Below, piece after piece: positions 2,920 through 34,492 of a DNA stretch of 41,731 nucleotides (position 1 is its first letter; the number at the start of each line of letters is the position of its first letter). Both the position numbers and the translations under genes were made by a program. This DNA is from Welwitschia mirabilis (lineage: Eukaryota), in contig JBOZIK010000001.1 of NCBI GenBank assembly GCA_051453625.1, forward strand, positions 39,378,422-39,420,152, read 5' to 3'. Under the pieces are notes generated by a model. That model made no database searches. It was not told where the DNA came from and worked only from the letters and a program-made list of their open reading frames with translations.

Positions 2920-3019
2920 NNNNNNNNNNNNNNNNNNNNNNNNNNNNNNNNNNNNNNNNNNNNNNNNNNNNNNNNNNNNNNNNNNNNNNNNNNNNNNNNN
3001 NNNNNNNNNNNNNNNNNNN

Positions 3020-3522
3020 CTCAAAACTTAGGTCTTTGGTATGACTATGATACTATATTATAGATCTAGTAGGATAAAGTGATGTTGATTGGGCAGGATG
3101 TGCTGATGATAGGAAAAGCACCAATGGTACTTGCTTCTATATGGGAAATTGCTTAGTTCCTTGGTCAAGTAGGAAGCAAACCACAACCTCTTTATCCACT
3201 GCTGAAGCTGAATACATAGTTGCTGAAGCCTGTTGTAGTCAGCTCCTTTGGATGAAATAGATGATGATCGATTTTGGTGTCAATCTTGACAAGATCAAAA
3301 TTTATTGTGATAACGCCAGCTTGATAAACATTACTAAGAATTTAGTTCAGCATTTGAGAACCAAGCATATAGATATTAGATACCATTTCATTCGAAAACA
3401 TGGTCAAAATAACAACGTTACTCTTGAATACATCTCAACTAACAAACAAATTGCGGACATCATGATCAAGATTTTGAATCAGGATAAATTTGTTTTTTTT
3501 TAGAAATAAGCTCGGAATAGGG
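3020..3522 (+). pseudogene. pol: Second copy of element A RNase H region (duplicate of 1484-1980)
   Basis: DWAGCADDRKST, SLSTAEAEYI, IYCDNAS, TKHIDIRYHFIR and QIADIM motifs. Colinear with 1484-1980 across a 100-N gap. Confidence 0.92.
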
Positions 3523-4525
3523 TGTTAGGGTCTGAAGGCACCCTAGGAGGGGGAGGGGGTGAATAGGGTATTTAAAAATATGTTACAATAGCAGAAATTT
3601 TAGATTTGAAAACAAATAGACATAAAATAGGACAGAGAAGTAAAGAAAACATAAAACAAGTGCACCAGATTTTTATAGTGGTTTGGCCAAGCGTACTCCA
3701 CTCTCAGGGGGTAGTAAATAGCTATTAGCCTTATAATTCCTTTATCTCTAAAGGGATCTTACAACAACTCTTTCACACAGAGTTCATACGGCTTCCAGGC
3801 CACTGTTCAAATCCTTGAGCCACTTATAAATAGAATGAGAGAGAATGATTCCTAATACAATAGTGCTTAGGTTTAGCATTGTTCATTAGTGTTTAAGTGC
3901 CCAAAGAATAATCTTCTAATGAAGATCGATTGCTTAATGCAGTACAATAGCTTTTAGAAAATGAAGCGAGTTTGATATAGAAGAGTTCTAGTAATGCACA
4001 AAATATTCCTTTTCAAAATCGTGCATACTTTACAATACCATAGAGAGGTATTTATGTAGAAGAGGAATAGCTAGGGTTTAGATCCTTGAAGTATGTGCTA
4101 GACGACCAAAAAGAGCCATTGTAATGTTGAAATCCACAGCTAATGTCTTTAAACGGCTATATTTCCGCACTAACGGATAAAAGGCTTGACGTCCCATCGA
4201 GGGGAGTCGGACGTCCCGATTTTAATCTGCTTTTACAAGAAAACCAAATATAGGGCCAGATGTCTTGATTTTATAGGGCAGACGTCTTGGTACAAATTAT
4301 CGTGGGCAGGTCTGGACGTCCCGGTTTCACCATGTGGATGTCCTAGTATAGTCAGACCGAATACAGGTTTGGACGTCCCGGTTTCACAGGGCAGACGTCC
4401 CAACATTAAAAAACAAGCACTTGTTTGGATGTCCCGATTTCATAGGGTGGATGTCTTGAGCCGATGAAGACTTATTTTCAGACTCACGAGTTTGATTCTC
4501 ATCATTGAAAATGCATGTTCCAACA
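3523..4525 (-). repeat. Element B 3' LTR (1003 bp)
   Basis: TG...CA termini. Preceded on the minus strand by the PPT GAAAAAGGGGAGAT. Homologous to 9126-10120. Confidence 0.93.
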
Positions 4526-4539
4526 ATCTCCCCTTTTTC
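4526..4539 (-). promoter_or_regulatory. Polypurine tract of element B
   Basis: Minus strand reads GAAAAAGGGGAGAT|TGTTGG. Further PPT-like purine tracts lie upstream (~4670-4780), the Sirevirus multiple-PPT signature. Confidence 0.88.
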
Positions 4540-4940
4540 AATGATGACAAACTTGCATGAGCGGTTGAATTCAGAAATTCCAAGAGATGAATAATGTTTG
4601 CCAAAAAACTCTTGAAAAGTAACTCTTCCCCATAATCAGACAAGTATCCTTTGTGTTTTATTGGATTTGAGCTCTCCCCCATAATTGGATGGGTATCTAT
4701 TGTGCTGAATAGATAATCTAGATATTTCATTTGTTAGCAAAAATACAAAAAATAATCTCATATTTTCTACCCCTTTGTCATTAATGAAAAGAAACATTAA
4801 AAAGTAAATAGACATAGGGAAATTAATAGAAAGTGTTTTGTATTATTATAAGATGATTACAAAAGTTGAGAGTTTTGAGAGTACAAAAAGAGAGAAGAAT
4901 GATAGTATAAGCATGTGAGGAAGAATAAGAGAAGAGGGTG

Positions 4941-5878
4941 CTAATCAGAATGAGAAGGAGGAGATGTTGTAGCTGGCTGTTCCCATGGTGCCTCCTTTTC
5001 TTCTGGATTCACAGGAATATCTAGACCATAAGCTAATAATCCAAATAAAACGCTGTCTATCTTCCTGTTCAATTTGTCTGTTGTAGCCCTGGTAAAGTCT
5101 CTGACCTCATGAATGGTTTGAAGCAGATCTACATTAGAGACGGTACCTGAGCTAGTCCCTTCTTTAGTTCTCTGTTTCTTTTTCGGTGGAGGAGCAGGTC
5201 CGATGGTTTCAGAAAAGATATTCATTTTCTTTAACAAATATAATCTTATTGGTGTAGGAACCTTAACAAGCTCCTCAACTTTCTGAATGGAGAACTGATG
5301 ATTTTCTAATATAGCTGTGATGAGACCCCCAAAGGGAAGACTAGAGTAGCTGACAATAAAGAACTGACAGATATAGAACATAATAAATTTACATAAGTTG
5401 ATTCTAACGCCGGTTCCCAGACAAAATAAAATGTATGCACAAAGTGGGGAAACTTCATCGTTGTGCCCTATTTTTGGAATAAGATTGTGTGTGGAAATCT
5501 GAAATAGAACTCTGTAAAATGGTTTAAGCTTATTTGTAGGAAGGTTAGCTCTCCAATGAACTTTCTCTCCATAGAGTTTAGTAGTCAAAACATCTTTGAA
5601 ACAACTTCTTGTAATGAACTGACGGAAGTAATTTCTTGAAAAATTCCTTCATTTGGATAACTAGGAGCTAGAGAAATTGCTTCTAAGTCGACTTCTGCTT
5701 CTCTACCATAAATTCTAGTGCGGATAGTCCAAGTAGAAGAGTTAGAATGAGCATTGCAATAAAAAAGTCATACCATTCGTGCTGAAGCTCGTGTGTTAGG
5801 GTCCAAAGCATTCAACCACCCTTGTTCTTCAAATTTGTGCACTATTCTCATTTCCTTTCTGAAGGAATCATAATCTAT
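4941..5878 (-). pseudogene. Sirevirus post-pol extra ('env-like') ORF, partial copy
   Basis: 215-aa open stretch includes THNLIPKIGH, RINLCKFI, LPFGGLITAILE and PPPKKKQRT. It lies between pol and the 3' LTR. Confidence 0.85.
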
Positions 5879-5978
5879 NNNNNNNNNNNNNNNNNNNNNN
5901 NNNNNNNNNNNNNNNNNNNNNNNNNNNNNNNNNNNNNNNNNNNNNNNNNNNNNNNNNNNNNNNNNNNNNNNNNNNNNN

Positions 5979-6061
5979 TGAGCCGATGAAGACTTATTTT
6001 CAGACTCACGAGTTTGATTCTCATCATTGAAAATGCATGTTCCAACAATCTCCCCCTTTTC
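5979..6061 (-). repeat. Duplicate start of the B 3' LTR (to 6047) plus PPT, truncated by a gap
   Basis: Near-identical to 4457-4539. Confidence 0.85.
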
Positions 6062-6463
6062 AATGATGACAAACTTGCATGAGCGGTTGAATTTAGAAAT
6101 TCTAGGAGATGAAGAATGTTTGCCAAAAGACTTCTGAAAAGTAACTCCCCCCCATAATCAGACAAGTATTTTTTGTGTTTTATTGGATTTGATCTCTCCC
6201 CCATAATTGGATGGGTATGTACATGTGCTGAATAGATAATCTAGATGTTTCATTTGTTAGCAAAAATACAAAAAATAATCTCATATTTTCTTCCCCTTTG
6301 TCATCAATGAAAAGAAACATTAAAAAGTAAATAGACATAAGGAAATTGATAGAAAGTGTTTTGTACTATCATAAGATGATTACAAAAGTTGAGAGTTTTG
6401 AGAGTACAAAATGAGAGAAGAAACATAGTATAAACATGTAAGGAAGAATAAGAGAAGAGGGTG

Positions 6464-7532
6464 CTAATTAGAATGAGAAGAAGAAGATGCTGTAGCTAGC
6501 TATTCCATGGTGCCTCCTTTTCTTCTGAATTCACAAGAATATCTAGATCATAAGCTGATAATCCAAATAAAATGCTATCTATCTTCCTGTTCAATTAGTC
6601 TGTTGTAGCCATGGTAAAGTCTCTGACCTCATGAATTGCTTGAAGTAGATCTACATTAGAGACGGTACCTAAGCTAGTCCCTTCTTCAGTTCTCTGTTTC
6701 TTTTTCGGTGGAGGAGCAGGTCTAATAGTTTCAGAAAAGATATTCATTTTCTTTAATAAATGTAATCTCAGTGGTTTAGGAACCTTAACAAGCTCCTCAT
6801 CTTTTTGAAAGAAGAACTGATGATTTTCCAATATAGCTGTGATGAGACCACCAAAGGGAAGACTAGAGTAGCTGGCAATAAAGAACTAACTGATATACAG
6901 TAAATTTACATAAGTTGATTCTAACGTCGGTTCCCAGATAAAATAAAATGTATGCACAAAGTGGGAAAACTTCATCTTTATGCCCTAGCTTTGGAACAAG
7001 ATTGTGTGCGGAAATCTGAAATAGACCTCTGTAAAATGGTTTAAGCTTATTTGTAGGAAGGTTAGCTCTCCAATGAACATTCTCTCTATAGAGTTTAGTA
7101 GTTAAAACATCTTTTGAAACAACTTCTTGTAATGAACTGACATAATTAATTTCTTGAAAAAATCCTTCATTTAGATAACTGGTAACTAGAGAAATTGCTT
7201 CTAAGTCAACTTCTACTTCTCTACCATAAATTCTAGTGTGAATAGTCCAAGTAGAAGAGTCAAAACGAGCATTGCAAAAAAAAAGGTCATACCATTTATG
7301 CTAAATCTCATGTGTTAGGGTCCAAAGCAATCAACTACCCTTGTTCTTCAAATTTGTGCACTATTATCATTTCCTTTCTGAAGGACTCATAATCTATCTT
7401 CCGTTCAGGAGCAATGGGTCTCTTGTTTAGTCCTCCAAACCAAGCTTTTTTGTATTCTGCAGAAATGAACCATTCTTCTTCAGAGGTTGGCTTCTTTATT
7501 TTCCTAGAGACACCAATCTTAGTTCTCACCAT
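6464..7532 (-). pseudogene. Sirevirus extra ('env-like') ORF of element B, full span (~355 codons), disrupted
   Basis: ATG at 7532 gives MVRTKIGVSRKIKKPTSEEEWF...RPIAPERKIDYESF...LPFGGLITAILE...PPPKKKQRT. Stop at 6464-6466. Internal stops and frameshifts present. Confidence 0.85.
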
Positions 7533-7689
7533 TGCAAAAGCAGAGTAGATCCTAGATAGCAAAGAAGACAAGAGGGAATGAAGATGAAGGAAGGAGGAAG
7601 TGGAGGAAAGGAGAAATGAAATGAAAGAAAGAAGAAAAGGTTTAAATAAAACCTGGTGAGAGCGTGGGCGTTCGCACCGACTTAAGCTC

Positions 7690-7830
7690 GGACGTCCGAG
7701 AAAAAATTATGAGACACCTGAGTTGTAAAAAAATTAAAACCCTTTTAAAAAGATGGATATCTAAGTATTCAATACAGGATGTCCGAGTTGTAATCTAGAT
7801 GGACGTCCAGGGCAAAAATGATGGGACATT
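7690..7830. repeat. Paired GACGTC-type palindromes in the pol-to-extra-ORF spacer of B
   Basis: Cores at 7691/7713, 7756/7778 and 7802/7825. Confidence 0.7.
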
Positions 7831-7977
7831 CAGGCAAGAAATTAACAGAGTTACACAAGTTTGACGAATAAAGATTCTAAGAAAACACAAGTTTAAGGAC
7901 AAATGGAGGACTACTTCCCAGATAATAACAAATTTAGAAGCGTAAGATATCATAAAAATAACTCATACCTGAGAGGG

Positions 7978-8349
7978 CTAAGCACCTATTCCTAAATTTT
8001 TCTTTAGGTAGATAAAGCACTCTTCATTGAGAGCCTTAGTCAATGTATCTGCAATTTAGTGATTAGTATCAATATATTCTAATTCAGCAATGTCATTTTG
8101 TACCCTATCTCTAATAACATGGTGTCTGATATCAATGTGTTTTGTGCGAGAGTGTTGAACCAGATTCTTTGTAATACTTATGGCACTTGTATTATTGCAA
8201 TATATTTTGATTGTTGGAATCTTTACTACAAAATCAACTAGCATTTGTTTCATCCAAGTAAGTTGGGCACAACAAGCTCCAGCAGTAATGTATTCAGCCT
8301 CTGCTATAGATAGGGATGTTGTGTTTTGCTTCTTGCTTAACCAAGATAT
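7978..8349 (-). pseudogene. pol: Element B RNase H
   Basis: SWLSKKQNTTSLSIAEAEYITAGACCAQL, IYCNNTSAISITKN and QHSRTKHIDIRHH motifs. Confidence 0.93.
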
Positions 8350-8449: not shown

Positions 8450-9058
8450 CAACTCCCATTTTGTCGATACCCTTACTTTCTTCTATGGCTGTGATCTTGG
8501 ATCTGAACTCAGTGGTTAGACTCCTCAGAATCTTCCTTACTACTCTATTTGTTGGAACCTTCACCTAATGCCCACATGCTATTCACAATGTTACTGATTT
8601 TCGTGGTATACTCCACCACGGATTCCCATTCTTCTATTTTGATGTTCTCGAATTTTGTGGCTAAGAGTTGTAGCTTTGAATTTTTGATGATATTGGTTCC
8701 TTCATAAGCTACTCTTAGAGTGTCCCACATATCTTTAGTAGTCATACACTAAACTAGTCTGTCATACTCTTCAGTGGATAGGGCACAAATGATTATCATT
8801 ACTTGGTCATTCATTTGAGAAATTTTTTTATCATTTGCATCCCACCTGTCTCTGGGGTTTTGGCATTTCTTTTCTGTCTATATCAGTTTTAGTCGGAGGA
8901 TTGTAGCCATACTCTACTACATCCTAAATATCTGGATTTAGAGAGGTTAAGAAGATGCTCATCTTGGATCTCTAGTGAGCATAATTACTACCATTAAAGA
9001 AATGAGGTTTAAAAACTACGTGACCTTTTGGATGCCTTGAAAAGTTACAAGATGCCAT
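8450..9058 (-). pseudogene. gag: Element B gag N-terminal part
   Basis: FFNGSNYAH*RSKMSIFL, KDMWDTLRVAYEGT and VVRKILRSL...FRSKITAIEE motifs, downstream of the PBS. Confidence 0.9.
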
Positions 9059-9111: not shown

Positions 9112-9123
9112 GTTCTGATACCA
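9112..9123 (-). promoter_or_regulatory. Primer binding site (tRNA-iMet) of B
   Basis: Minus strand TGGTATCAGAAC lies 2 nt from the LTR end. Confidence 0.9.
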
Positions 9124-9125
9124 AT

Positions 9126-10120
9126 TGTTGGGATATGAAGGCACCCTAGGGGGGTGAACAAGGTATTTAAAAATATGTTGCAATGACAGAAATTTTAGAT
9201 CTGAAAACAAATGGACATAAAATAGTACAAAGAAGTAAAGAGAACATAAGACAAGTGCATTAGATTTTTATAGTGGTTTAACTAAGCCTATTCCATTCTT
9301 AGAGGGCAGCAAATAGCTATCAACCTCTTGGTTCCTTTATCTCTAAAGGGATCTTACAACAACTCCTTCACAAGGAGTTCGTATGGCTTCTAGACCAGTA
9401 CTCAAATCCTTGAGCCACTTACAAATACAATAAGAGAGAATGATTCTTGACATGATCGTGCCTAGGTCTAGCACTGTTTATCAGCATTTAGGTGCCCAAA
9501 GAATAATCTTCTGATAAAGATCGATTGCTCAATACAGTAGAATAGCTTTTAGAAAATGAAGCGAGTTTGGTACAAAAGAGTTCTAGTAATGCACAAAATA
9601 TCCCTTTTCAAAATAGTCCATACTTTATAATACAATAGAGAGGTATTTATCTAGAAGAGGAATAGCTAGGGTTTAGATCCTTGAAGGATGTGCCAGATGA
9701 CCAAAAGAGGGCTATTGTAATGTTGAAATCCATAGCTAATGTCTTTAAACGACTATATTGTTATGCTAATAGATAAAAGAAGGAACACCCTATCAAAGGG
9801 GTTCAGATGTCTAGGTTTTAATCTACTCTTATAAAAAAACTGAAAACACGGTCGGACATCCTGATTTTATAGGGTGGACACCCAGTTCAAATTATCGTGA
9901 GTAGGTCCGAACGTGCCAGTTTCACAGTGTGGACATCCCAGTACAGTTAGACTGAATACAGATCTGGATGTCCCGGTTTCACAAGGTGGATGTCCCAATA
10001 TAAAGAACTGAGCAGTTGTTTGGATGTCCCAATTTCATAGGGCGAACATCCCAAGCTAATGAAGACTTATTTTCAGACTTGCGAGTTTAATTCTCATCAT
10101 TGAAAACACATGTTCCAAAA
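9126..10120 (-). repeat. Element B 5' LTR (995 bp)
   Basis: Colinear with 3523-4525 but visibly diverged. Outer end is mutated (TTCCAAAA) and followed by the TSD TAGGG. Confidence 0.92.
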
Positions 10121-10669
10121 TAGGGATCAATTCACTTTCAGTATAAAATGCTCAAAATTTGCCTACATTTGTCATCATCAAAGGCATTTCTGGTACGATG
10201 CGTATGTGGGATTCTAATTCATGCCTTTATTCAACATCTTCCATTTGAGAATTAAGCCTAACTTCTACTAAAATTCATACGTCCTAGTCCTGGAATTGGA
10301 CATCCGACTAATTTCTCTTGGCAAACAAACTGAACTTTCCCCCAGACATCCCAACGATTTTTTTGGACATCCGACTGTAAATTTGTCTCAAATCTAACCT
10401 TAAGCCTGGATGTCCCGAATCATGCCACTGGATGTCCTGACCAAATATGCATTATAGTGGGTTGTTAAAGCTTGGACGTCCTAACCAAAAATGTCAACGT
10501 CTGGCCTTTAGCATGGATGCAAACTTGTGGATGCCCCCTCTTTTTTCTTCCATTTAAAAAGCTTTCCCTCTCCCTTCTTCCCTCATTTTGTCTTCTCCTT
10601 CTCAATCTTTAAGTCTAGTTTTCCTGTTTCCTTCATTCAATCCTTCCCTTTGGCTTTCCAAAGTCTATC

Positions 10670-11722
10670 ATGGTAAAATCTAAGTNNNNNNNNNNCAAAG
10701 AACTAGCTTTAGAAGCTGACTAGTTTCAATCCCCAAAACATAACAAGAATTGGTTGAGATGTTTTTCAAGGAGGCCAATAGCACCTAAGAGAATAATAGA
10801 TTATGCATCCTTCCGACATGAGCTCAGACTAGCACCCAAATTCGAAGAAAAAAGATGGATGTATGCTCTCAATTTTGACACAAAAGCTTCCGCCAAGACG
10901 GTACGTCTATTCTACTACAATGGTGTTTTTGATGGAAATGAATGGAAACTCTCTAAGGTTTATGGGAGAATAGTAGAGATAGATTTAGCATCCATTTCTT
11001 TGATTAGTAGTTTTCCAAATGATGGCTTCTTTCATGAAATAAATTCAGTAAGTTCTCTTCAAGAAGTAGTGTCCAAAGAAGTTATCACAGAAGAACTATG
11101 TGGAAAACGAGTAATATGACATGCTAACATTCCTACAAATCAGTTGAAACCTTTCTATCGTGTCATTTTTCAAATTTCCACACATAATTTATTTCCTAAG
11201 CTAGGACACAAAGATGAAGTCTCGCCACTATGTGCTTACATCATGTTTTGTTTGGGAATCGGAGTCAAAATCAATCTCTGCAGATTTATTATGTATTACA
11301 TCATCCAATTTTTCATTAGTAGTTACTCAAGTCTGCCATTTGGAGGTTTAATCACCGCTATTTTAGAAAATCATCAGTTTATTATTCAAAAAGATGAAGA
11401 ACTAGTCAAAGAACCAAAACCTCTTGGTTTCTATTCGTTGAAAAAATGAACATTTTTTCTTATATCATTGGGTCTTCTCTTCTTCCAAAGAAGAAACAAC
11501 GTATACAAGGAAAGCTCTACCTCAGGACAGGTTTCAAATGAACTTCTCTTCAAAGCCATTTAGAGTCTTTAGTCTTCTATAGACAAACTGAATAAGAAAG
11601 TAGATCATGTGGTTTTCAGGTTATCTGCTTTGGGTCTTGAGATTACTCTAGACCTAGAAGAAGAAGAAGATGATGAAGGAAAGTCTGCGTCTTCTCCTCA
11701 TCATGGTAAATCCTCTAATTAG
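10670..11722 (+). pseudogene. Extra ('env-like') ORF of element A, a diverged homolog
   Basis: MVKSK..., RPIAPKRIIDYASF, THNLFPKLGHKDEVSPLCAY, LPFGGLITAILE and PKKKQR motifs, with stops. Confidence 0.85.
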
Positions 11723-12148
11723 CTTTCTGTGCCTCTCATGTCTTCTCTTCTCTTCTCTTCATCTTCTTGTTTCACTCCTTCTTCCTATCCGACCTGTTAT
11801 ACTTTCAATGATGACAAAGGGGGAGAATATTTTATGTACTTATATTGAAATCACTTTTGTATGAATGCTTAAGTTTTTGATATAACAATTCCTTCTGTGC
11901 CTATTATAATTTTTTTACACAAATATCTCATATACGCATGTATATTTATATTTGCTTCAAATATGGTCTATTATCTAACATGGCAATTATCTTTTTAATT
12001 TTTTTAAGCTAATTATTCTAGACATGTATACATATAATTATTTATATCAAGATCAATGAACAGGTGACAACATTCAAATCAAATGATGAACTAAGGGGGA
12101 GCATATTTCTTGTCTCACGCAAATTGCCATCATTGAAAAGGGCGAGAT

Positions 12149-13393
12149 TGTTGGTAAGGCATGTTTTAATGATGAACAATGGAAGCAGAACCAGGAACTA
12201 AATCTCAGCTGAAGATCTTGTTGCGCAAAGTAAAAGAATCAAGCCAAATCAAATCAATACTGGGACATCCGCCCTTCATCCAGGGACGTCTAGACCTGTG
12301 CTTGGAAAATAGCGCTAGGATGTCCGCCCTTCAACCCGGGACATTCGAGCCTGTGTTCTGTCAAAAGTAGTAGTGGGACGTCTAAATTTCAAACTGGGAC
12401 GTCCGACCCCTATCTTAGTTCTCCGTCAGAGGAATTTTAAAATTGGGACGCTCATCCTTTTTGAGAGGGACGTCTGGTTAGTTATCCGTTGCTACAGAAA
12501 AAGCTTTTAGATAAATGTTGGGCGTGAATTATGAAGCAAGAACGGCTAAGAGATGGCGCCTGATGGCACACTTATAAAAAATGACCTTCCTTAGGGTTCC
12601 TATTTATAAGTTTCTTATAAATGTAGTCCCTGAAATTGTTTTGAGGGAGCTAAACTATTGAAAATCATCTAAGTATCAAATCAATAGAAATACTCCTTCC
12701 TCTATGATTGTATGGTGAACTGAACTAGGAAATTCTGATCTTATCTGATTATATTTCATACTGATGAATCTGAGCATCTAAGACTTATTTCTCATCAGAC
12801 TTCATTCTGCTCTTCTTCTTTTGTGTTGCTCTGAAAGAGCAAGTTCTGTAACTTGAACCCTAGCTAGAGAGTGGTTGTACTAAAGAGATCTATTGACTAA
12901 GGGAGCCATGAGGCTGAAAGCTTGTGCTACCCCTTGAGAGTGAAATAGGCTTGGAGAGCTGAACCACTATAAAATCTGGTGCTTTTCTTTTTGTGCCTTA
13001 TTTATTTTGATTGCAGTATCTATTGGGTATGCGGTCTCCATTTATGATGGGCTCCAGTTTCCACCTACGTCATGGCTTTTGGTGTGATGGTAAAGGGCCA
13101 ACAATTGGTATCAAAGCCATGGTGGTTGGTTGGTCTCAGGTTCGAGTCTCCTAGATAGCTGCCTAGTTTATGGGAGTACTTGGCATGTGGATCGAGGGGG
13201 AGATTGTTAGGTATGCGGTCCCCATGCCTAACCCGACACGTGGGTAAATATGATGGGCTCCAGTTTCCATCTAAGTCATGGCTTTTGGTGTAATGGTAAA
13301 GGGCCCCACAGTACCTACTAGTTTTATTTCAGAATTTCATTTAAGTTTAAAAATGCTATTCATCCCCTCTCTAGGGTGTTTTTGATCCCAATG
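12149..13393 (+). repeat. Element A 3' LTR, containing a TRIM insertion
   Basis: TGTTGG start after the PPT, GACGTC pairs at 12264-12474, a TATA-like region near 12600-12620, and the end CTATTCATCCCCTCTCTAGGGTG...GATCCCAA(TG). Confidence 0.85.
13021..13310 (+). mobile_element. TRIM (terminal-repeat retrotransposon in miniature), 290 bp
   Basis: Direct repeats at 13021-13103 and 13205-13310, PBS TGGTATCAAAGCC at 13106, PPT GAGGGGGAGAT before the second repeat, and TSD GTATC/GTACC. Confidence 0.92.
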
Positions 13394-15529: not shown

Positions 15530-16232
15530 TATCACACTTTGGGAAAGTTTGTGGTGATTATTAGGAACAAAATTGTACTTCTCTTTAACATACTCGGAAC
15601 AAAGCAATGGCTAGACAAAAGTGGTGAATTGGAGCATTGGAAACTTGCTTTGTTCCTTGTGTAATGAAAATATGCTAAGTTTGCATGCAACAACTCTATT
15701 AATAAGAGCACAATGGAAAAAGCCATTTCTAGCAGTGTACAATTGCACCTACAAACATTCACTTTGGTTGAAAAGGTGGAAGTTCCACTAGAAAGGGTTA
15801 ACGAATTTGCAACCAAAATTGCAAATCTACACAAGTATGTGCAAAGACAATTTGGAAGTAAAATTTGAAGATCAAGGAAAGAATGGATTAGTAAAGGTAG
15901 CGTGTAGAGTTTGAAGAAACTGATTTAGTGTTGACGCACATTTGGAATGAGAGGTTTCTAGTAGGGACTTAAAGCATAGGAATATTGAGCTATGTACTAC
16001 TGTCGAAGAGATTTCTTCAAATGCATGCAAATTCGAACTTCTCAAGGCATTGAGATTTCTTCAACTTTTAATGTTGTAGATTTGTTTATGTATCATGGCG
16101 AGGTGGAGGATAGTGACACATGGATTAATGAGTTGTGAAAGATGGACAAAGGCAAGGAGAGAGTGTATGAATTACCAATCATTTTGGATGAGTGGGAGAG
16201 ATCTACAAGAGAAGCACTACAAAAAATACTGT
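15530..16232 (+). pseudogene. pol: Ty3/gypsy chromovirus integrase C-terminus with the start of a chromodomain-like tail
   Basis: LLGTKLYFS..Y..QSNG*TKVVNWSIGNLL, FACNNSINKST, ISSNACK.ELPQG.EISSTFNVVDL and ILDE..RST...YKKY motifs. Confidence 0.8.
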
Positions 16233-17025
16233 TGGACTCCAACTCGACCCCCAAATGCTGGGGAACCCCTTTTTCAACTTTGCTTAGCCTTCTTTTCTAG
16301 CTAGTCCCTCATTCCACCTCATCTCCCCCTCTCTCCCCTTTCTCCTCGTTTCTCCCCTTCCTTTCTTCCTTATTCTCCCCTCCTCTTTCCTTTTTCCTCT
16401 TTCCCTCAACTTAGGTCTTGGGTTTTGCATGGAATTCATTACAGGTCTTGGGTCTTGCTCTCTCGCTTAGCTTTGGTCTCTAGTTCAACCTCGTGATCCA
16501 GTGCCAGAGTCCGACAATGACTTCAACTCTTGCGATTCTACGTTTTGCCTTCAATCGGGGTCTCCAACCTCCTCATCTCACAACAAGAGACCCTCTAGCT
16601 ACCTCCTCCATCTAGGATCCCTCCTCAACCCCATTTCCTCCACTTCTCCATCACTTCTTCCCCTTTACCTTCTACCTCTATCCCATCCTCCCTCATTCTT
16701 CCCTTGACTCCCAACTTCCACACCCAAGGCATGGAATCCTCTCCAATTCCACGTCGAAGGTGTGGAATTCTTGTTCCATATTCCTTCCTCAGCTTTGATT
16801 AGATAACTACTTGTCTTAAGTAGCTCACAGGAGGAAGAATCAAATGATGACGTTGGACAGCTTGAATCTTCAATTTGGATCTCTAGCAAAGACGCCAGGC
16901 TAGCTCAGCACCTCAAATCCTCTAGNNNNNNNNNNNNNNNNNNNNNNNNNNNNNNNNNNNNNNNNNNNNNNNNNNNNNNNNNNNNNNNNNNNNNNNNNNN
17001 NNNNNNNNNNNNNNNNNNNNNNNNN

Positions 17026-17590
17026 GTTTGCATGCAACAACTCTATTAATAAGAGCACAATTGAAAAAGCCATTTCTAGTAGTGTACAATTGCACCTACA
17101 AACATTCACTTTGGTTGAAAAGGTGGAAGTTCCACCAAAAGTGGTAAATGAATTTGCAACCAAAATTGCAAATCTACCCAAGTATGTGCAAAGATAATTT
17201 GGGAAGTAAAATTTGAAGATCAAGGAAAGAATGGATTAGTAAAGGTAGTGTGTAGAGTTTGAAGAAAGTGATGTAGTGTTGACGCACATTTGGAACGAGA
17301 GGTTTCTAGTAGGAACTTAAAGCATAGGAATATTGAGTTATGTACTACTGTCGAAAAGATTTCTTTAAATGCATGCAAATTGGAACTTCCTCAAGGCATT
17401 GAGATTTCTTCAACTTTTAATGTTGTAGATTTGTTAATGTATCATGGCGAGTTGGAGGATGCTGACACATGGATTAATGATTTGTGAAAGATGGACAAAG
17501 GCAAGGAGAGAGAGTGTATGAATCATCAATCATTTTGGATGAGCGAGAGAGATCTACAAGAGAGAAGCACTACAAAAAATACTATTGGAC
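17026..17590 (+). pseudogene. pol: Duplicate of the chromovirus integrase fragment
   Basis: Colinear with 15679-16232. ORF-track segment KISLNACKLELPQGIEISSTFNVVDL. Confidence 0.8.
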
Positions 17591-19920
17591 TCCAACTTGA
17601 CCCCCAAATGCTGGGGGACCCCTTTTTCAACTCTGCTCAGCCTTCTTTTCTAGTTAGTCTCTCATTCTACCTCACCTCCCCCTCTCTCTCCTTTCTCTTC
17701 GTTTCTCCCCTTCCTTTCTTTCTTATTCTCCCCTCCTTTTTCCTTTTTCCTTTTTCCCTCAACTTAGGTCTTGGGTTTTGCATGGAATTCAATCCAGGTC
17801 TTGGGTTTTGCTCTCTCGCTTAGCTTTGGTCTCTAGTTCAACCTCGTGATCTAGTGTCAGAGTCCGACAATGACTTCAACTCTTGCGATTCTACGTTTTG
17901 CCTTCAATCGGGGTCTCCAACCTCCTTATCCCACAGGAAGAGATCCTCTAGCTGCCTCCTCCATCTAGGATCCCTCCTCAACCCCATTTCCTCCACTTCT
18001 CCATTACTTCTTCCCCTTTACCTTCTACCTTTATCCCATCCTCCCTCATTCTTCCCTTGAATCCCAACTTCCACATCCAACGTATGGAATCCTCTCCAAT
18101 TCCACGCCGAAGATGTGGAATTCTTGTTCCATATTCCTTCCTCAGCTTTGATTAGATAACTACTAGTCTTAAGAAGCTCACAGGATGAAGAATCAGATGA
18201 TGACATTATAGCTTGAATCTTCAATTTGGATCTCTAGCAAAGACGCCAGGCTAGCTCAACACCTCAAATCCTCTAGAGGCCCACTTTTTCACCTTGTGAA
18301 AATCCCCCTTCTACCCTTTCTCTCTCATTTCCCTCTTATTCTTTTCTCTTTCCTCCCTTTCCCTTCCTTCTTCCCTCTTTTTACCTTCTTCTCCTTTCCT
18401 TCATAACTTACCTGCCTAGATTCCACATCCAAGGTGCAGAATCCAAACCAATTCCATGCCGATGACATGAAATCTAGACTAATTCCAAGTCCAGTGCGTG
18501 GAATTCCAGAAGATCTTTCCCCTACACCCTCCTTTGTCTTCTTGTTCCACTCCCTCTCTGTAGAACTTAGTTTCTGTAATCTCCTACATAACATCTCTTC
18601 GATTAGTATCCTTCCTAAGCTGTTTTACTCTCACAGATGTAGTTCTTCAGACAAGGTCATCCTTCTTCAACTCTTTGCCTGCCTTTCTTCATTGAGGGCA
18701 TCATTATTCAGTACACACCATTACTTCAACTTCAAAAGAGTCCTAAGGTTTCATCAAATGCTTAGGACATGCTAGAGTCAAGCCAGCCTACCCGTGACAT
18801 TACACCACAGGGTGAGTACCAGCGTGCTGCCTAGTTAGGTGGGCATTGTTCTGGTGGAGTGATTCTCTCTAGCTTAAGGATGATGAGGACCACTAGACAA
18901 CAAGGAGTTGCTATTCGGGTCCCCTTTCCATCATCATATCCCCTTCTTGTTCTTCCATGTCACTCTCGCTTCTTTTCCAATCCTTTAAGAGGTACTCTTT
19001 TCCTTTCTCTCCCACTTGTAGGTCTCTGCATCTGGGAGACCTCCTTTATGTCTCCTCTATATTCCCTTGTTATCCTTTAGTATTGTAAAAGTCATTTATA
19101 GCACTAGAGCTCCCTTCCTCGTATACTGGATAGTAATTTCGCCTTCAAGACTCTCAGGTAGCTGGTGACTTCTCCTTCTCAGCAAGGAAGACTTATGAAA
19201 ACAACAAAAGGGGCTTCTATTAACTGCACATCTTTAGTGATTCTAATGCTTTCTCATCAAGTTTTGTAATCTATTGTTTTCAGCTCTCTGTTTCTATAGT
19301 GTAACGGTCCTTCCTTCTTCTCGCTTGGAAAGACCTATTTATACCCCTCTCCTCTCTATTTCAAGAGGGAGGGATGTTTTCAGAAGGACAACCTTTTTTT
19401 TAAAACTTTTCTCATTACTTTATTACTTACTATCTATAGGCACAATAGAGAATATAGAGGCCCTTTACTCAGGTGACCTCCATTGTTAGGGGGAGAGGGA
19501 TCCTTCATCTTCTATAGAGGAAGAACACCCCTTTGTTGTACACTTTCTCATCCCCTTTTCTAAAGAACTACACCCATCTAGTTACAGCCTTGGGAGGAGA
19601 CCTGATTGGAACCTCTAATCCCATAGCCAAAACTTGTTTCATACTCCTCAATTAGCACCTTGAACAACTTGAGGATACCTCCTTCCTTAGGAAGTCCTCC
19701 TCCCATTTCATACTTTTCATTTCCTATTTTCTTTTCTTTTTTAACCCATCGTAGTACCTGTGAAGTTCTACACACTAGGCATAGCCCATGCTTTAACCCT
19801 ATTCCTCAGTTACTCTGTACTTTGAGGGAAATCATATTGAGTACCTAATTTCTAGCCGCCCTCTAAGACAAGTCCATGACCTCACCTTGGAAAGTGGATG
19901 TTGTTGTCCTTTCCAAGCCT

Positions 19921-23950: not shown

Positions 23951-24384
23951 AAATGTTAGCAATTAGTTTATGTCGGCAGCTTGAAAAAGTCGTGTCAGGG
24001 AGACATGTCATCGGGTTGGCACAAAATGTTGGTACAAATTGTCAATAACTGCTTCCTATTTAAAATTTGAGGGAACATAAATTTTATAATATTTATAAAC
24101 TCCACGAGCTAAAAACGGTTAAAAATAAGCAACCCAAAAACCATTTGAACTACATAGACAATTAGAAAGCCAATTGTTATGTGGAAACATTATACATTGC
24201 ATACAATTTGTTGAACACTCTTGCAAATACATTTATGAATTTACGAAAAACATTAGAATTTGTGAAAAAAACATATGTTATTAAAATGTTCAAACCATAA
24301 TAACACAAATTATTCTTTGCATAATAATGTGGAAAAAGGCATGTAACAAGAACAACATAAAGTGTATAATATTAGATAAGTGTC

Positions 24385-25463
24385 ATGTTCAGAACAAAGA
24401 TAGGTGTTTCAAGGAAAGGCAAGGAACCAGTTTCTGAAGAAGATTGGTTCACTTTTGCAGCAGCCAGAAAGGCATGGTTTGAAGGATTGGACAAGAGGCC
24501 TATTGCTTTTGAACGAAAAATTGACTATGATTCTTTCATAAGAGAAATGAAAATTGCCCACAAATTTGAAGAACAAGGGTGGATGAATGCATTAGACCCT
24601 GACACACAAGCTTCAACAAGAACAATACACCTATTTTATTATAATGCTCGTTTTGATTCTACCTCTTGGGTTATTTTCTCTAGAGTTTATGGGAGAGCAG
24701 TTATAGTAGACTTACAAGCCATCTCTCTCGTCACAAGTTACCCCAATGAGGGATTCTTTTATGAAATTACCTCTGTAAGCTCTTTACAAGAAGCTGTTTC
24801 TAAAGATGTGTTAACAAGTAAGCTTTGTGGAGAGAACATTCGTTGGAGAGCCAACCTTCCAACAAATAAGCTAAACTATTTTACAGAGTTTTTTTTTTTT
24901 TTCAAATTTCCACGCATAATCTAGTTTCCAAGCTAGGGCACAAAGATGAGGTTTCTCCATTTTGTGCATACATTTTGTTTTATCTGGGCATAGGTGTCAG
25001 AACTAACATGTGCAAATTTATTATGTTCTACATCAGCTAGTTTTTTGTTGCAAGTTACTCCAGCCTTCCGTTTGGTGGTCTCATCACAGCCATTTTGGAA
25101 AACCATCAGTTCTCCATTCAAAAAGATGAGGAGCTTGTGAAGGTTTCCAAACCCCTTGGTTTATATTCGCTTAAGAAAATGAACATCTTCACAGAAACCA
25201 TCGGGCTTGCTCCTTTTCCGAAAAAGAAATAGAGGACTAAAGAAGGGCCAAGCACGGGTACTGTATCCAATGCTGATTTGCTTCAGGCCATTCATGAGAT
25301 GCGTGATTTTACTAGGGCCACCACAAAAAAATTGAACAAAAAGATAGACCATGTATTATTTGGATTATCAGCTTATGGTCTTGACATTCCTGTGAGTTTA
25401 GAGAAAGAGGAGGCACTAGGGGAACAACTGACTTTAGCATCTTCCACTTCTCATTTTGCCTAG
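24385..25463 (+). pseudogene. Extra ('env-like') ORF of element C (B family)
   Basis: MFRTKIGVSRKGKEPVSEEDWF, LPFGGLITAILE and PKKK*RT motifs. Frameshift at a poly-T run near 24890. Confidence 0.87.
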
Positions 25464-30052: not shown

Positions 30053-31640
30053 ATGAGTTCTATTGCAAAAGGTCTCTGTGTTTCTAGGCCTGCACTATTT
30101 GATGGAACAAACTATAGATATTGGAAGGCTAAAATAAGAATATTCTTAAGATCTCTTGATGTAGATTATGAGGATATATTGATTAGAGGTTATATTCACC
30201 CTACTACAACTCAAAAGGATGACTAAGGCAATACTATGGTTGTGTTGAAACCAAAAGATAAATGAACTCTATTTAATAAAGCTAATGCCACTCTTGATGC
30301 TCGTGCATTAAATGCAATTTTTTGTGTTGTGACTGTAGACGAGTTTAAGAGAATAGTGAACTACAAGAGTGCCAAAGAAGCATGGGATATGTTTGCTATT
30401 GCTCATGAAGGGGTATCCACTGTTAAGCAAGCAAAGATGTAGATGTTGATTACAGGAAGAGACAGATGTTGATTAGAGGAAGAGACTTTGCAAGAATTCT
30501 TGCCTAGATCAATAGACATTGTAAACTCCATGGCAAGTCTTGGAGAAAAGATGGAGGAATCCAGAATAGGTGTTAAGATTCCTTCCCAAGAAATTTGAAT
30601 CGAAGATGACTGCGATCGAAGAAAAAAAAGATGTCAGTAAGATGCCACTAAATGAACTACAAAGTAACCGCAAGATTATGAGTTAAAATTTTCTAAGAAT
30701 AGGAAGAAAAGCCTTGTTTTAAAAAGTGTGCAAGAAGATACAAAAAGTGATAGGTCAGAAGATGAATTAGATGAGTATGAAGTAGCTCTTTTAACAAGAA
30801 AATTTAAAACACTCTTATCAAAAAGAAGAGATGGAGAAACCAGCAAAGGGTTTGGGCATATGGCAAAGAAATGTGCCAACAGCAGGAAACTGAAGGACCC
30901 AAAGAAGCCTTCACTAGTAGCCACTTGCAAAAATCTTGGAGAAGTTGAAGAAGAAAGCTCAGAGGAAGAGTTTGAAGAAAATGGAACATTATCTTTCATG
31001 GCACTTCTAACCCCCACTACTCAATCACCAAAATTCACTGACCATGATGATTTGGACCTGATGAAAGATGAAGAAGAGGAGGATGTTAAAGTCACATGTC
31101 ATGAATTGTATCAAGAATGCAAAAAGCTTGCTCTAAAAGTCAATGAATTGAACAAAACCATCAAGGATTTGAGAAGGGAGAACGAAGCCGTAAATTAAAG
31201 ATATAAAGAGATCCAAGATGAAAACACAAGTCTCATCAAGATTCACAGAAGGACCAAAGAAACGTGAAAAGATGCTTGGATCGAGATACCTTGCATATGA
31301 CAAAAAAGGTGATTGGGTATGAAGGCAATAGCGCATCAACGTCATCCACTGAGGTAAGTACTAAAGGCATAACATTTCCTACTAGAAATATCTCTTGTAA
31401 TTATTGTTGCAGACTTGATCATTCAAAATTAAACTGTCCATATAGAAAGATGTATTTTGCAAATATTAATGCTTTATTGTTTAAATTTGTTCCTAAAGAA
31501 CTCTCTATCCAAAAGCCAAGAAAGACCATGTGGATAAAAGCTAACAATTTAAAGTCTTTTTGATTTAAGCAGCTTTCAAAATTAAGAGTGGTTCTTGTTG
31601 GTACTTTGTTAGTGGGTGCTCTCGCCACATGTTTGAGGAT
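30053..31640 (+). pseudogene. gag: Element D gag (two zinc-knuckle regions) and protease N-terminus
   Basis: RPALFDGTNYRYWKAK, SAKEAWDM..AHEG, KMTAIEE, VALLTRKFK, KGFGHMAKKC, CNYCCRLDHSKLNC and WYFVSGCSRHM motifs. Confidence 0.9.
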
Positions 31641-33061: not shown

Positions 33062-34492
33062 TATTCCACTTGCCAGGTTCAGTAGCTTGCATGGTTGGAT
33101 GAAAATCCATGTGTAGCCTTTGCAGGCATGGGATCTAGCCACTCAAAATTCATATGTAACCAAAGACATGTAAATAGTTTATTTGCTTTCTTATGAGACC
33201 ATGGCTTATATGATGTNNNNNNNNNNNNNNNNNNNNNNNNNNNNNNNNNNNNNNNNNNNNNNNNNNNNNNNNNNNNNNNNNNNNNNNNNNNNNNNNNNNN
33301 NNNNNNNNNNNNNNNNNNNNNNNNNNNNNNNNNNNNNNNNNNNNNNNNNNNNNNNNNNNNNNNNNNNNNNNNNNNNNNNNNNNNNNNNNNNNNNNNNNNN
33401 NNNNNNNNNNNNNNNNNNNNNNNNNNNNNNNNNNNNNNNNNNNNNNNNNNNNNNNNNNNNNNNNNNNNNNNNNNNNNNNNNNNNNNNNNNNNNNNNNNNN
33501 NNNNNNNNNNNNNNNNNNNNNNNNNNNNNNNNNNNNNNNNNNNNNNNNNNNNNNNNNNNNNNNNNNNNNNNNNNNNNNNNNNNNNNNNNNNNNNNNNNNN
33601 NNNNNNNNNNNNNNNNNNNNNNNNNNNNNNNNNNNNNNNNNNNNNNNNNNNNNNNNNNNNNNNNNNNNNNNNNNNNNNNNNNNNNNNNNNNNNNNNNNNN
33701 NNNNNNNNNNNNNNNNNNNNNNNNNNNNNNNNNNNNNNNNNNNNNNNNNNNNNNNNNNNNNNNNNNNNNNNNNNNNNNNNNNNNNNNNNNNNNNNNNNNN
33801 NNNNNNNNNNNNNNNNNNNNNNNNNNNNNNNNNNNNNNNNNNNNNNNNNNNNNNNNNNNNNNNNNNNNNNNNNNNNNNNNNNNNNNNNNNNNNNNNNNNN
33901 NNNNNNNNNNNNNNNNNNNNNNNNNNNNNNNNNNNNNNNNNNNNNNNNNNNNNNNNNNNNNNNNNNNNNNNNNNNNNNNNNNNNNNNNNNNNNNNNNNNN
34001 NNNNNNNNNNNNNNNNNNNNNNNNNNNNNNNNNNNNNNNNNNNNNNNNNNNNNNNNNNNNNNNNGGTTATGTTCATTCAACATTGTTCTTACCATGTCAA
34101 GAAGCAGTTCATTATTGCATTCAACCACCCCATTCTATTGAGGAGTCTTGGGAGCACAAAATTCATGGAATAATGCCAAAATTGTTAAAGAAACTTTCTT
34201 ACTGTTTTCGACTTCTATAACATGATTACTATTCATTCTCTTGATTATGTATCCTTTTATGTCTAGAACCTTCTACTCAGATTAGCAAATTCTTGAAATG
34301 CTTCGTCTTTAAAATGAAGAAAATAAACCCATTGAAAAATCATCTACAACAACCATAAAGAGGCTTCCAGTTTTCATTGGACCTACCATATCTATGTGTA
34401 GAAGATCACGTGATTATAGCTAGTAATATCTCTTTGCCCTTAAACATGTTCTAGTTAGCTTCCCAACCATACATGCACATAAGAATGGCTTC

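Follow-up and report, generated by a model that had tools for sequence, protein, structure and literature searches.

The env-like gene of Sirevirus-type retrotransposons in Welwitschia mirabilis: a PF20167 protein without envelope features

In many crop genomes, Sireviruses take up a large part of the DNA. The published descriptions we draw on present their envelope-like (ENV-like) gene, eORF-3'F, as encoding a putative envelope protein with a transmembrane segment and of unknown origin, and call its function unproven and controversial (PMC3414828, PMC2829016, PMC7264820). The gene stands in sense orientation, is followed by polypurine octamers (AGGGGGAG), has palindromic repeats both within the LTR and on the 5' side of the ORF, and specifies a coiled-coil-type C-terminal helix (PMC2829016, PMC3414828, PMC6317226); the gene analysed here agrees with these descriptions in each of these respects.

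Comparable accessory proteins are encoded by other plant transposable elements (TEs). VANC21, the anti-silencing factor of VANDAL21/Hiun (PDB 9LNJ/9LNK), is likewise a TE-encoded accessory protein with a coiled-coil helix. According to the account in PMC5735166, it binds dense arrays of short motifs in the non-coding DNA of its own element; unlike the protein described below, VANC carries the Pfam domains DUF1985 and DUF287, and its gene belongs to a DNA transposon of the Mutator-like type. VANC is reported to be structurally homologous to MAIN, which has a plant mobile domain (PMD), and both VANC and the Athila domain are reported to oligomerise via coiled coils (PMC13547354). As described in PMC4408406, Athila ORF1 (PF03078) and the PMD-CC and Tr28-CC eORFs of Tat, Ogre and Retand combine a globular 'mobile' domain with a C-terminal coiled coil.

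Here we describe an ORF found in four copies in a 41,731-nucleotide stretch of W. mirabilis DNA (the window). It corresponds to eORF-3'F, the extra gene termed 'env-like' in Ty1/copia retrotransposons of the SIRE lineage (Sireviruses), and all four copies here are dead. Its placement in PF20167, its missing envelope features and its match to VANC21 turn the open ENV-like question into one that can be addressed experimentally. The PF20167 and VANC21 placements apply to the family in the window.

Four decayed copies in Sirevirus-type elements

The initial annotation of this DNA had reported four homologs of a post-pol ORF. A tblastn search of the window with P0001, an intact, transcript-derived relative of 357 aa (62% identical), recovered exactly these four and none other (8 HSPs, 52-65% identity):

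4941-5878, minus strand: copy A, N-terminus (first ~45 codons) lost in an N gap at 5879-5978
6464-7532, minus strand: copy B, the feature studied here, with at least five in-frame stops and two frameshifts
10670-11722, plus strand: copy C, start MVKSK; five stops, one local change of frame and a gap of 10 N at 10686-10695
24385-25463, plus strand: copy D, start MFRTK, with one frameshift and two stops

The homology claimed in the initial annotation holds; the openness implied by the term ORF does not, because none of the four copies is an open reading frame. All four are pseudogenes. An open piece of copy A spans 235 codons (4944-5648) and reaches the natural stop, and the N-tail of copy C is interrupted by its 10-N gap. 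Homology of D to B starts precisely at the ATG. Copies A and B lie within a direct duplication of 1.52 kb and 93-94% identity that begins right behind a 100-N gap, and they may represent one locus assembled twice. Three sub-families, 70-76% identical in DNA sequence, carry the ORF at an equal position, and all four copies share an identical core of 18 residues, SSLPFGGLITAILENHQF.

The ORF lies in sense orientation between copia pol and the 3' LTR. Its surroundings contain the following elements:

3522-4521, minus strand: LTR downstream of copy A, with a GGGACGTCC palindrome array at 4187-4435 upstream of a TATA-like box
6050-6057, minus strand: AGGGGGAG, the Sirevirus polypurine octamer, downstream of copy B
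7689-7809: two palindromic boxes of the CGGACGTCC type, located in the linker 157-277 nt before the ATG of copy B
8056-8349, minus strand: RNase H end of pol from a Ty1/copia element, immediately upstream of copy B, its translation showing the copia RNase H C-terminal motif
8548-8748, minus strand: a gag piece
9112-9123, minus-strand element: tRNA-Met-type primer-binding site (PBS), TGGTATCAGAAC
9126-10117, minus strand: 5' LTR belonging to the minus-strand element; the PBS follows it
10408-10482: similar palindromic boxes 5' of copy C
11818 and 12094, plus strand: AGGGGGAG octamers after copy C
25627, plus strand: AGGGGGAG octamer after copy D

The proposal that this is a Sirevirus post-pol ORF is borne out by the copia pol upstream, the octamers, the palindrome arrays and the PBS. 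The assignment to Sireviruses is based on the AGGGGGAG tracts, the palindrome arrays, the tRNA-Met PBS and the position of the ORF, with pol and gag present as fragments only. Among the open pieces listed by script upstream of copy D, no pol was found within 5 kb, so this element is truncated. The octamer matches nine times in the window against 2.39 expected; one or two octamers lie behind each ORF copy, and more than one only at copy C. Allowing at most one mismatch, the palindrome GGGACGTCC occurs 48 times against 1.43 expected, with clusters in six LTR copies and ahead of ORFs B and C. Its core is CGG-ACGT-CCG, and the unit can also be written CGGACGTCCG. This pattern agrees with the palindromic repeats described in the LTR and 5' of ENV in ENV-containing Sireviruses (PMC2829016). 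The same account reports palindrome arrays in Sireviruses that lack the ORF, so the arrays need no such protein in cis.

In raw RNA-seq data from the same species, mapped at 85% likeness, four runs yielded 430, 69, 94 and 297 reads, most of them less than 95% alike and more than 90% of them overlapping the stretch in part only. Across most of the ORF the depth per strand averaged 0-7.5; at 7499-7898 it was about zero, and no joints were seen. These reads show only low-level transcription of related elements and speak to neither locus, splicing nor translation. As a separate observation, copies B and C have a CT-rich tract with an AG about 20 nt ahead of the ATG; no RNA-seq reads supported a splice acceptor at this tract.

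A PF20167 protein without envelope features

By profile matches, the ORF product falls into Pfam PF20167 (Transposase_32, putative plant transposon protein), a family without assigned function. PF20167 matches four of five open pieces of the window copies with 21.5-35.2 bits; the matches are collinear and jointly cover profile positions 2-173, each piece scoring below the 45-bit gathering cutoff because it is a fragment. P0001 exceeds this curated cutoff with 59.8 bits over residues 65-238, and matches no other Pfam family, including DUF1985, DUF287, PF10536 and PF03078, at E<=10. PF20167 is present in all 104 relatives scanned, two of which additionally carry copia RVT_2; PMD, DUF1985, DUF287 and ATHILA are absent from the top 25 of the 50 families counted for these relatives (E<=0.1). 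In a library of 1.84 billion proteins, the close sub-family (>50% identity) consists of P0001 and one 88-aa fragment only, and a profile search for named relatives in a set of 5.8 billion proteins gave nine matches, all 'uncharacterized' or 'hypothetical'. Within the PF20167 literature, the sole plant-TE report that we found concerns Athila and not Sireviruses: a sunflower Athila aORF annotated as PF20167 is stated there to have a predicted nuclear localization signal (NLS) (PMC11728184). The supplementary tables on SIRE eORFs in PMC6317226 may already assign the family.

An AlphaFold2 model of P0001 (pLDDT 86.9, pTM 0.77) shows four modules, namely a disordered basic N-tail, an alpha/beta globular domain of ~250 residues, a disordered linker with PKKKxR and a C-terminal heptad helix. 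Counterparts in the window copies are as follows:

5169-5186, minus strand: PKKKQR in copy A
6553-6648, minus strand: heptad helix at the C-terminal end of copy B, interrupted by one stop
6691-6708, minus strand: PKKKQR of copy B, a monopartite-NLS-like cluster within the disordered linker
6866-7300, minus strand: PF20167 match on an open piece of copy B, 25.5 bits
7488-7532, minus strand: codons 1-15 of copy B, MVRTKIGVSRKIKKP, the basic N-tail, 12/15 identical to P0001
11120-11446, plus strand: PF20167 match on a piece of copy C, 35.2 bits
11485-11502, plus strand: PKKKQR in copy C
25218-25235, plus strand: PKKK*R in copy D
open piece of copy A: PF20167 match, 34.3 bits

Disorder is predicted for residues 1-10 of P0001 (pLDDT 52) and for linker residues 271-278 (pLDDT <50). 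The basic cluster PKKK(Q/*)R was said to be kept in every copy, and we find it in this disordered linker as PKKKQR in three copies and as PKKK*R in the fourth. Of 112 relatives, 31 have a K[KR]x[KR] motif within 90 aa past the domain, compared with 11 that have one inside it. The C-terminal helix of P0001 (residues 294-331) is hydrophobic at 10 of 11 a/d positions; the heptad-like helix proposed initially is therefore present, and the string quoted for it is a composite of copies that is exact in none. A homodimer prediction for this helix (residues 286-340, two copies) scored 0.04, which says nothing for or against.

The first 30 residues of P0001 have a mean hydropathy of -1.33 and a best 8-residue window of 0.65, and a hydropathy scan (not SignalP) detects no N-terminal signal peptide, in line with the hydrophilic N-terminus noted at the outset. 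The sole 19-mer above 1.6 (residues 195-213, score 1.73) holds an R and a K and is located in core helices with pLDDT >95, such that what has been published as a transmembrane segment corresponds here to a buried core helix; neither hydropathy nor the AlphaFold2 model offers a credible membrane span in P0001. Structure comparison revealed no viral fold similarity in BFVD (best E 0.58) and no viral glycoprotein match in the PDB. As modelled, the product is a soluble protein and not a membrane envelope; the initial annotation had likewise doubted the envelope reading. A non-envelope and probably nuclear protein is a well-supported reading, its nuclear part being suggested by the NLS-type motif and the predicted disorder.

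A moderate fold match to VANC21 and the conserved N-terminal tail

When 350,542 PDB chains were searched with the P0001 model, Foldseek placed 9lnj_A (VANC21-DNA) first, with an E value of 5.2e-3, a probability of 0.89 and a TM-score of 0.28. The model of P0009, a domain-only relative that is 26% identical (pLDDT 87.5, pTM 0.82), again gave 9lnj_A first (E 3.9e-3, probability 1.00, TM-score 0.46, rmsd 6.0 over 247 columns). With the next PDB matches at E 0.74 for P0001 and 0.36 for P0009, VANC21-DNA is the sole PDB outlier in both of two independent models. Both TM-scores stay below the usual level of 0.5, and no Foldseek match reaches E<=0.001. A profile of 150 relatives searched against PDB sequences did not return VANC21, the only matches being noise from low-complexity and coiled-coil segments (best E 0.67). 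The comparison with VANC-type proteins made in the initial annotation gains unexpected structural support; no link was found at the level of sequence. We conclude that the predicted fold is closest to the DNA-binding anti-silencing transposon protein VANC21, that the match is moderate, and that a VANC-like role is plausible on the strength of the models. In the VANC21 element as in the elements of the window, non-coding DNA holds a short motif, specific to the family, in dense arrays (for VANC21, as described in PMC5735166). In contrast, the two proteins have no detectable sequence similarity and superpose with TM-scores below 0.5. The charge of the globular domain is balanced (29 K+R versus 28 D+E), so DNA binding is not evident from composition.

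The N-termini read MVRTKIGVSRK at 7532 (minus strand), MFRTKIGVSRK at 24385 (plus) and MVKSK at 10670 (plus), as the initial annotation had quoted them, under letters that mismatch its own coordinate list. This tail is the best-conserved segment of the protein, being identical to P0001 at 12/15 and 13/15 positions versus 59-70% for the domain. Over RTKIGVSRK (codons 3-11), copies B and D, the one pair compared, differ by four synonymous and no nonsynonymous changes, and omega for codons 1-65 of the same pair is 0.16; the ORF has been under purifying selection. An M-x-R-[ST]-K start is found in 7 of 93 N-terminally complete distant relatives versus 0.04-0.12 expected, and the seven are scattered on the domain tree (6 changes needed, shuffled mean 6.8). 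The R-[ST]-K start is apparently a selected feature of the family. The second RK is kept in the close family only.

The initial annotation had suggested that this tail may mimic histone H3; in such a reading, after Met removal, an x-R-T-K...R-K tail would be met by H3-tail readers and writers, and would act as a decoy or tether that shields the element from silencing. The window tail is, like that of H3, short, disordered (pLDDT 52) and basic, with R-T-K at positions 2-4. Its conservation, with no nonsynonymous change in RTKIGVSRK between B and D, and the scattered enrichment of M-x-R-[ST]-K are also what such mimicry would predict. Exact A-R-T-K occurs in two distant relatives, P0101 (MARTKNPARRS) and P0137 (MARTKGLAKKG), whose starts resemble the H3 sequence ARTKQTARKS. 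However, H3 has A1 where the window copies have V or F, and F at position 2 would block removal of the Met by Met aminopeptidase; copy C has K instead of R (MVKSK); and the second RK is lost outside the close family. Searches of all PDB chains by phmmer, with the 25-aa tail of B and with the 30-aa MARTK tail of P0101, each returned 0 matches at E<=10 and hence no H3. Many relatives begin with MAPKRK, MPPKRK or MAPKKR, which are generic basic NLS-like tails, and residues 2-15 are simply K/R-rich (3.19 versus 1.64 expected). Known viral histone mimics, such as influenza NS1 (ARSK) and SARS-CoV-2 ORF8 (ARKS), are internal or C-terminal motifs that have been validated by binding, and in the titles and abstract starts of the histone-mimic literature we found no H3-tail mimic encoded by a TE. 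The first residues are conserved and histone-like in their sequence, and the likeness to H3 is without statistical support. With V/F-R-T-K in place of A-R-T-K and no phmmer match, the claim of mimicry is not supported so far and we consider it rather improbable; this basic and conserved stretch might just as well serve as an NLS or as some other short linear motif.

Competing explanations

Taken as a whole, the best explanation, and one that we hold to be fairly likely, is that the gene encodes a non-envelope PF20167 protein of the VANC21 fold class that serves as a nuclear accessory DNA or chromatin factor. The analysis itself establishes the family, the architecture, the missing envelope features, purifying selection, a fold match to VANC21 and the palindrome arrays; nuclear location, DNA binding, an anti-silencing effect and a role for the tail would come on top of these. 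The protein would enter the nucleus and bind DNA or chromatin as an accessory factor of its own element, the likeliest target being the CGG-ACGT-CCG palindromes that the element itself carries in dense arrays, both in its LTR and shortly before the ORF. Binding would probably favour transcription or counteract silencing, with the C-terminal helix providing oligomerisation and the N-tail acting as a short docking motif. Relative to the initial annotation, the observations are confirmed in part and their interpretation is supported in part.

Among the alternatives, a helper of nuclear import or of the particle, with no role in chromatin, seems unlikely. Tail and linker NLS would recruit importins, and the coiled coil would tie the protein to the virus-like particle (VLP) or pre-integration complex that brings cDNA to the nucleus. 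Two basic NLS-like segments and the coiled-coil-type helix suit such a function, as do the prominence of importin-family host proteins in a predicted TE-host network (reported in PMC13547354) and the chaperone-type roles earlier proposed for ENV-like proteins (as outlined in PMC7264820). It leaves unexplained, however, a conserved globular domain of 250 residues whose sole structural match is a DNA-bound protein. That the ORF is a captured fragment of a host gene, functionless for the element, is very improbable: plant LTR-element eORFs are described as heterogeneous and often thought to have been independently acquired (PMC6317226), and all four window copies are broken, but omega is 0.16 between the diverged lineages B and D, three sub-families of 70-76% DNA identity hold the ORF at an equal position, P0001 is intact and transcribed, and the core SSLPFGGLITAILENHQF is identical in 4/4 copies. 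The classical 'env-like' reading, a true envelope or membrane protein for cell-to-cell spread, can draw on the location between pol and the 3' LTR together with a coiled-coil-type helix, as in retroviral env, on older predictions of transmembrane and coiled-coil segments in Sirevirus ENV-like ORFs (as given in PMC3414828) and on the one 19-residue window at hydropathy 1.73. This window is charged and buried in a globular core with pLDDT >95, the N-terminus is without a hydrophobic segment, neither the PDB nor BFVD contains a matching viral glycoprotein fold, and the linker has an NLS-type cluster; the envelope reading is already disfavoured, and we find it scarcely credible.

The favoured nuclear DNA or chromatin factor also has a bolder form, which we regard as doubtful. 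Here the Sirevirus ENV-like protein would be the counterpart of VANC, a nuclear, oligomeric and sequence-specific anti-silencing factor on the palindrome arrays, with the x-R-[ST]-K tail as an H3 decoy or tether for readers and writers. If true, this would explain the enigmatic ENV-like gene and the repeated motifs of Sireviruses by one mechanism.

Athila, Tat, Ogre and Retand are Ty3/gypsy elements, whereas those in the window are copia, and P0001 shows no HMM cross-match. A second ESM Atlas search (domain only, among named clusters without PF20167 and PF03078) identified no other named family. In the first, the closest cluster outside PF20167 was PF03078 ATHILA (0.93, 178 of 256 features). 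These likenesses suggest that one fold class, comprising PMD, VANC, the Athila domain and PF20167, each with a coiled coil, has been recruited repeatedly by DNA transposons, gypsy and copia elements. One relative, P0157, bears PF03078 and PF20167 together.

Decayed copies of a Sirevirus ORF

Translation of the four intervals initially annotated as homologous ORFs gave related frames of ~355 codons, and tblastn of the window with P0001, an intact 357-aa transcript-derived relative, recovered precisely these copies (A-D) and nothing further. The homology thus stands, but not their status as ORFs: 0/4 frames are open.

Copies, duplications and neighbouring pol in the window
4941-5878, minus: copy A; first ~45 codons lost in the 100-N gap 5879-5978
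6464-7532, minus: copy B; at least five in-frame stops, two frameshifts
10670-11722, plus: copy C; five stops, a local frame change, a 10-N gap inside the N-terminal tail
24385-25463, plus: copy D; two stops, one frameshift
5292-5345 (minus), 6814-6867 (minus), 11327-11380 (plus), 25059-25112 (plus): the SSLPFGGLITAILENHQF stretch
8056-8349, minus: end of Ty1/copia pol RNase H, preceding copy B
1510-2732 and 3051-4283; 4457-5767 and 5979-7285; 15679-16507 and 17026-17860: duplicated pairs

The reported N-termini were borne out (MVRTKIGVSRK in B, MFRTKIGVSRK in D, MVKSK in C), as was the NLS-like PKKKQR in all four copies, reading PKKK*R in D; the heptad-helix string proved to be a composite of several copies. 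The 18 residues SSLPFGGLITAILENHQF are identical in 4/4 copies, whose sub-families are 70-76% identical in DNA, and fit LPYG..LT..F, a core motif found family-wide.

The window consists of AT-rich plant sequence (~35% GC) interrupted by eight N runs, one of them an 848-N gap at 33217-34064. It holds three direct duplications (1.35-1.55 kb each, 91-95% identical). One, a 1.52-kb repeat of 93-94% identity, contains A and B, and its second unit starts directly past an N gap; the 100-N gaps at 2920-3019, 5879-5978 and 16926-17025 each lie at or just before the start of a second unit. This pattern recurs at two further gaps, and the three duplications look more like unmerged overlapping contigs or haplotypes than biology; A and B may therefore represent a single locus that was assembled twice.

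Farther upstream of copy B, pol is itself preceded by a gag fragment, a tRNA-Met-type PBS (9112-9123) and a ~1-kb LTR (9126-10117). The octamer AGGGGGAG, described as a Sirevirus polypurine feature in PMC2829016, occurs nine times (2.39 expected) and follows each ORF copy. Palindromes of the CGG-ACGT-CCG type occur 48 times (1.43 expected), clustered in six LTR copies and 150-280 nt 5' of the B and C ATGs, the layout that PMC2829016 describes for ENV-containing Sireviruses. These features together identify the ORF as the 'ENV-like' gene of Sireviruses, the counterpart of eORF-3'F of SIRE elements, which according to PMC6317226 is present in 74% of them and highly heterogeneous.

Likeness of copy D to copy B begins precisely at the ATG and no pol was found within 5 kb upstream, so the element of copy D is truncated at the ORF start; the DNA 5' of it (24217-24385, plus) is unrelated and AT-rich, noncoding over 5 kb. 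The LTR 3' of copy C (12110-13117, plus) runs straight into a tRNA-Met-type PBS, TGGTATCAAAGC (13106-13117), so two neighbouring elements of a tandem array seem to share it, the first as its 3' LTR and the second as its 5' LTR. Other decayed fragments of copia gag, integrase and RT (153-1118, plus; 30668-31563, plus; 37478-37924, minus; 40446-40967, plus) show that several Ty1/copia insertions are nested in the window.

A PF20167 protein lacking envelope features

Of the five open pieces in the window copies, four matched PF20167 (Transposase_32; 'putative plant transposon protein' in Pfam) at 21.5-35.2 bits, collinear over profile positions 2-173. A word-indexed protein search returned one relative, P0001, a complete ORF from a transcriptome assembly (62% identical), which scored 59.8 bits against PF20167 (cutoff 45) and matched no other Pfam family. 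Exhaustive phmmer over 1.84 billion representatives yielded 153 proteins at E<=1e-3; leaving aside P0001 and a fragment of 88 aa (52%), these were 20-35% identical. PF20167 was present in 104/104 relatives scanned, with copia RVT_2 besides in two, gene models fused to pol. P0001 was analysed in place of a consensus or repaired copy; its AlphaFold2 model (150-sequence alignment) has mean pLDDT 86.9 and pTM 0.77.

Segments of the P0001 model
1-10: low confidence
~15-265: globular alpha/beta domain, pLDDT >94 for most
266-293: disordered linker containing PPKKKPR
294-331: single long helix, then an acidic tail

The initial proposal that this is no envelope protein was upheld by hydropathy and model. 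Residues 1-30 of P0001 are hydrophilic (mean hydropathy -1.33), leaving no N-terminal hydrophobic signal, and the single 19-residue window above 1.6 (195-213, score 1.73) includes R and K and belongs to core helices; it may be the segment scored as transmembrane in older analyses. K[KR]x[KR] occurs within 90 residues past the domain in 31/112 relatives, compared with 11/112 inside it, and the product is probably nuclear. The C-terminal helix has hydrophobic residues at 10/11 a/d positions and would mediate oligomerisation; homodimer prediction returned no verdict.

The basic N-terminal tail and a possible VANC21-like fold

The tail (first ~15 residues) is the best-conserved segment, with 12/15 (B) and 13/15 (D) identities to P0001, against 59-70% in the domain and 32-39% in the helix. 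In the single pair B and D, codons 3-11 (RTKIGVSRK) carry four synonymous and no nonsynonymous differences and omega over codons 1-65 is 0.16, which shows protein-level constraint on the tail; the ORF evolved under purifying selection.

That the tail mimics histone H3, as initially proposed, we consider improbable, although its x-R-[ST]-K start is a real, selected feature. Ninety-three of 150 relatives have an initial M and >=40 residues N-terminal to the conserved GW anchor; among these, seven carry M-x-R-[ST]-K at the start (twice each as MVRSK, MSRSK and MARTK, once as MARSK), against 0.04-0.12 expected from R[ST]K frequency elsewhere in the same proteins. They are scattered on the domain FastTree, a weak tree with many long branches (6 changes, shuffled mean 6.8; 84/500 shuffles as low as 6). 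P0101 starts MARTKNPARRS, close to H3 ARTKQTARKS. No specific link to H3 emerged, and several features argue against mimicry: V or F precedes R in window copies and K replaces R in copy C, the second RK is confined to the close family, MAPKRK or MPPKRK opens many of the relatives, residues 2-15 are K/R-rich in general (3.19, 1.64 expected), and phmmer of the tails of B and P0101 against PDB did not find H3.

Two relatives outside the window, P0004 and P0055, start ...GRSKRLR[SA]GAGPS, which resembles the KSHV LANA arginine-anchor peptide that binds the nucleosome acidic patch; this would be a second chromatin-tether-like tail in the family.

The predicted, confident fold has one PDB match, the VANDAL21 anti-silencing factor VANC21 with target DNA (9lnj_A). 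It was the sole Foldseek outlier for P0001 (E 5.2e-3, prob 0.89, TM 0.28, 312 columns; runner-up E 0.74). To check reproducibility and drop the mobile helix, we modelled P0009, a natural 269-aa domain-only relative (26% identical; pLDDT 87.5, pTM 0.82); VANC21 was again the lone outlier (E 3.9e-3, prob 1.00, TM 0.46, rmsd 6.0 A across 247 columns; runner-up E 0.36). The initial comparison with VANC thus gains structural support, at TM <0.5; at the sequence level, family profiles did not match VANC21. A BFVD fold search gave no match (best E 0.58). Outside PF20167, the cluster closest in language-model features is PF03078, the C-terminal domain of ATHILA Orf1 (0.93, 178/256 features), and one relative has both domains. 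A sunflower Athila 3' aORF is annotated PF20167, called PF03078-related and predicted nuclear in PMC11728184; PMC13547354 reports structural homology between VANC and MAIN, a PMD protein, and according to PMC4408406 Tat elements carry extra ORFs of the PMD-CC and Tr28-CC types.

VANC21 binds dense YAGTATTAY arrays in non-coding regions of its own element and brings about a loss of methylation, according to PMC5735166. We infer that the ORF product would bind its element's palindrome arrays and would counter silencing or support transcription. Taken alone, a VANC-like mechanism is a tentative and somewhat doubtful hypothesis, since the palindromes also occur in Sireviruses that lack the ORF, TM-scores stay below 0.5 and the globular domain is charge-neutral.

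Transcripts over the ORF

Same-species RNA-seq reads over the ORF are sparse, mostly <95% alike and only partly on the stretch, so not locus-informative; no joints or spliced reads over it were seen in four runs. CT-rich tracts lie 5' of the ATG in copies B (7533-7600, minus) and C (10600-10669, plus), that of B ending in AG ~20 nt 5' of the ATG, and would suit a candidate splice acceptor for a subgenomic mRNA. Reads also pile up within 5979-6138 (depth 20-37 per strand, two runs) on a ~55-nt piece, 6021-6076, in the polypurine tract/LTR junction area. They continue into unlike sequence on both sides; this piece is evidently a short conserved segment common to many transcribed elements.
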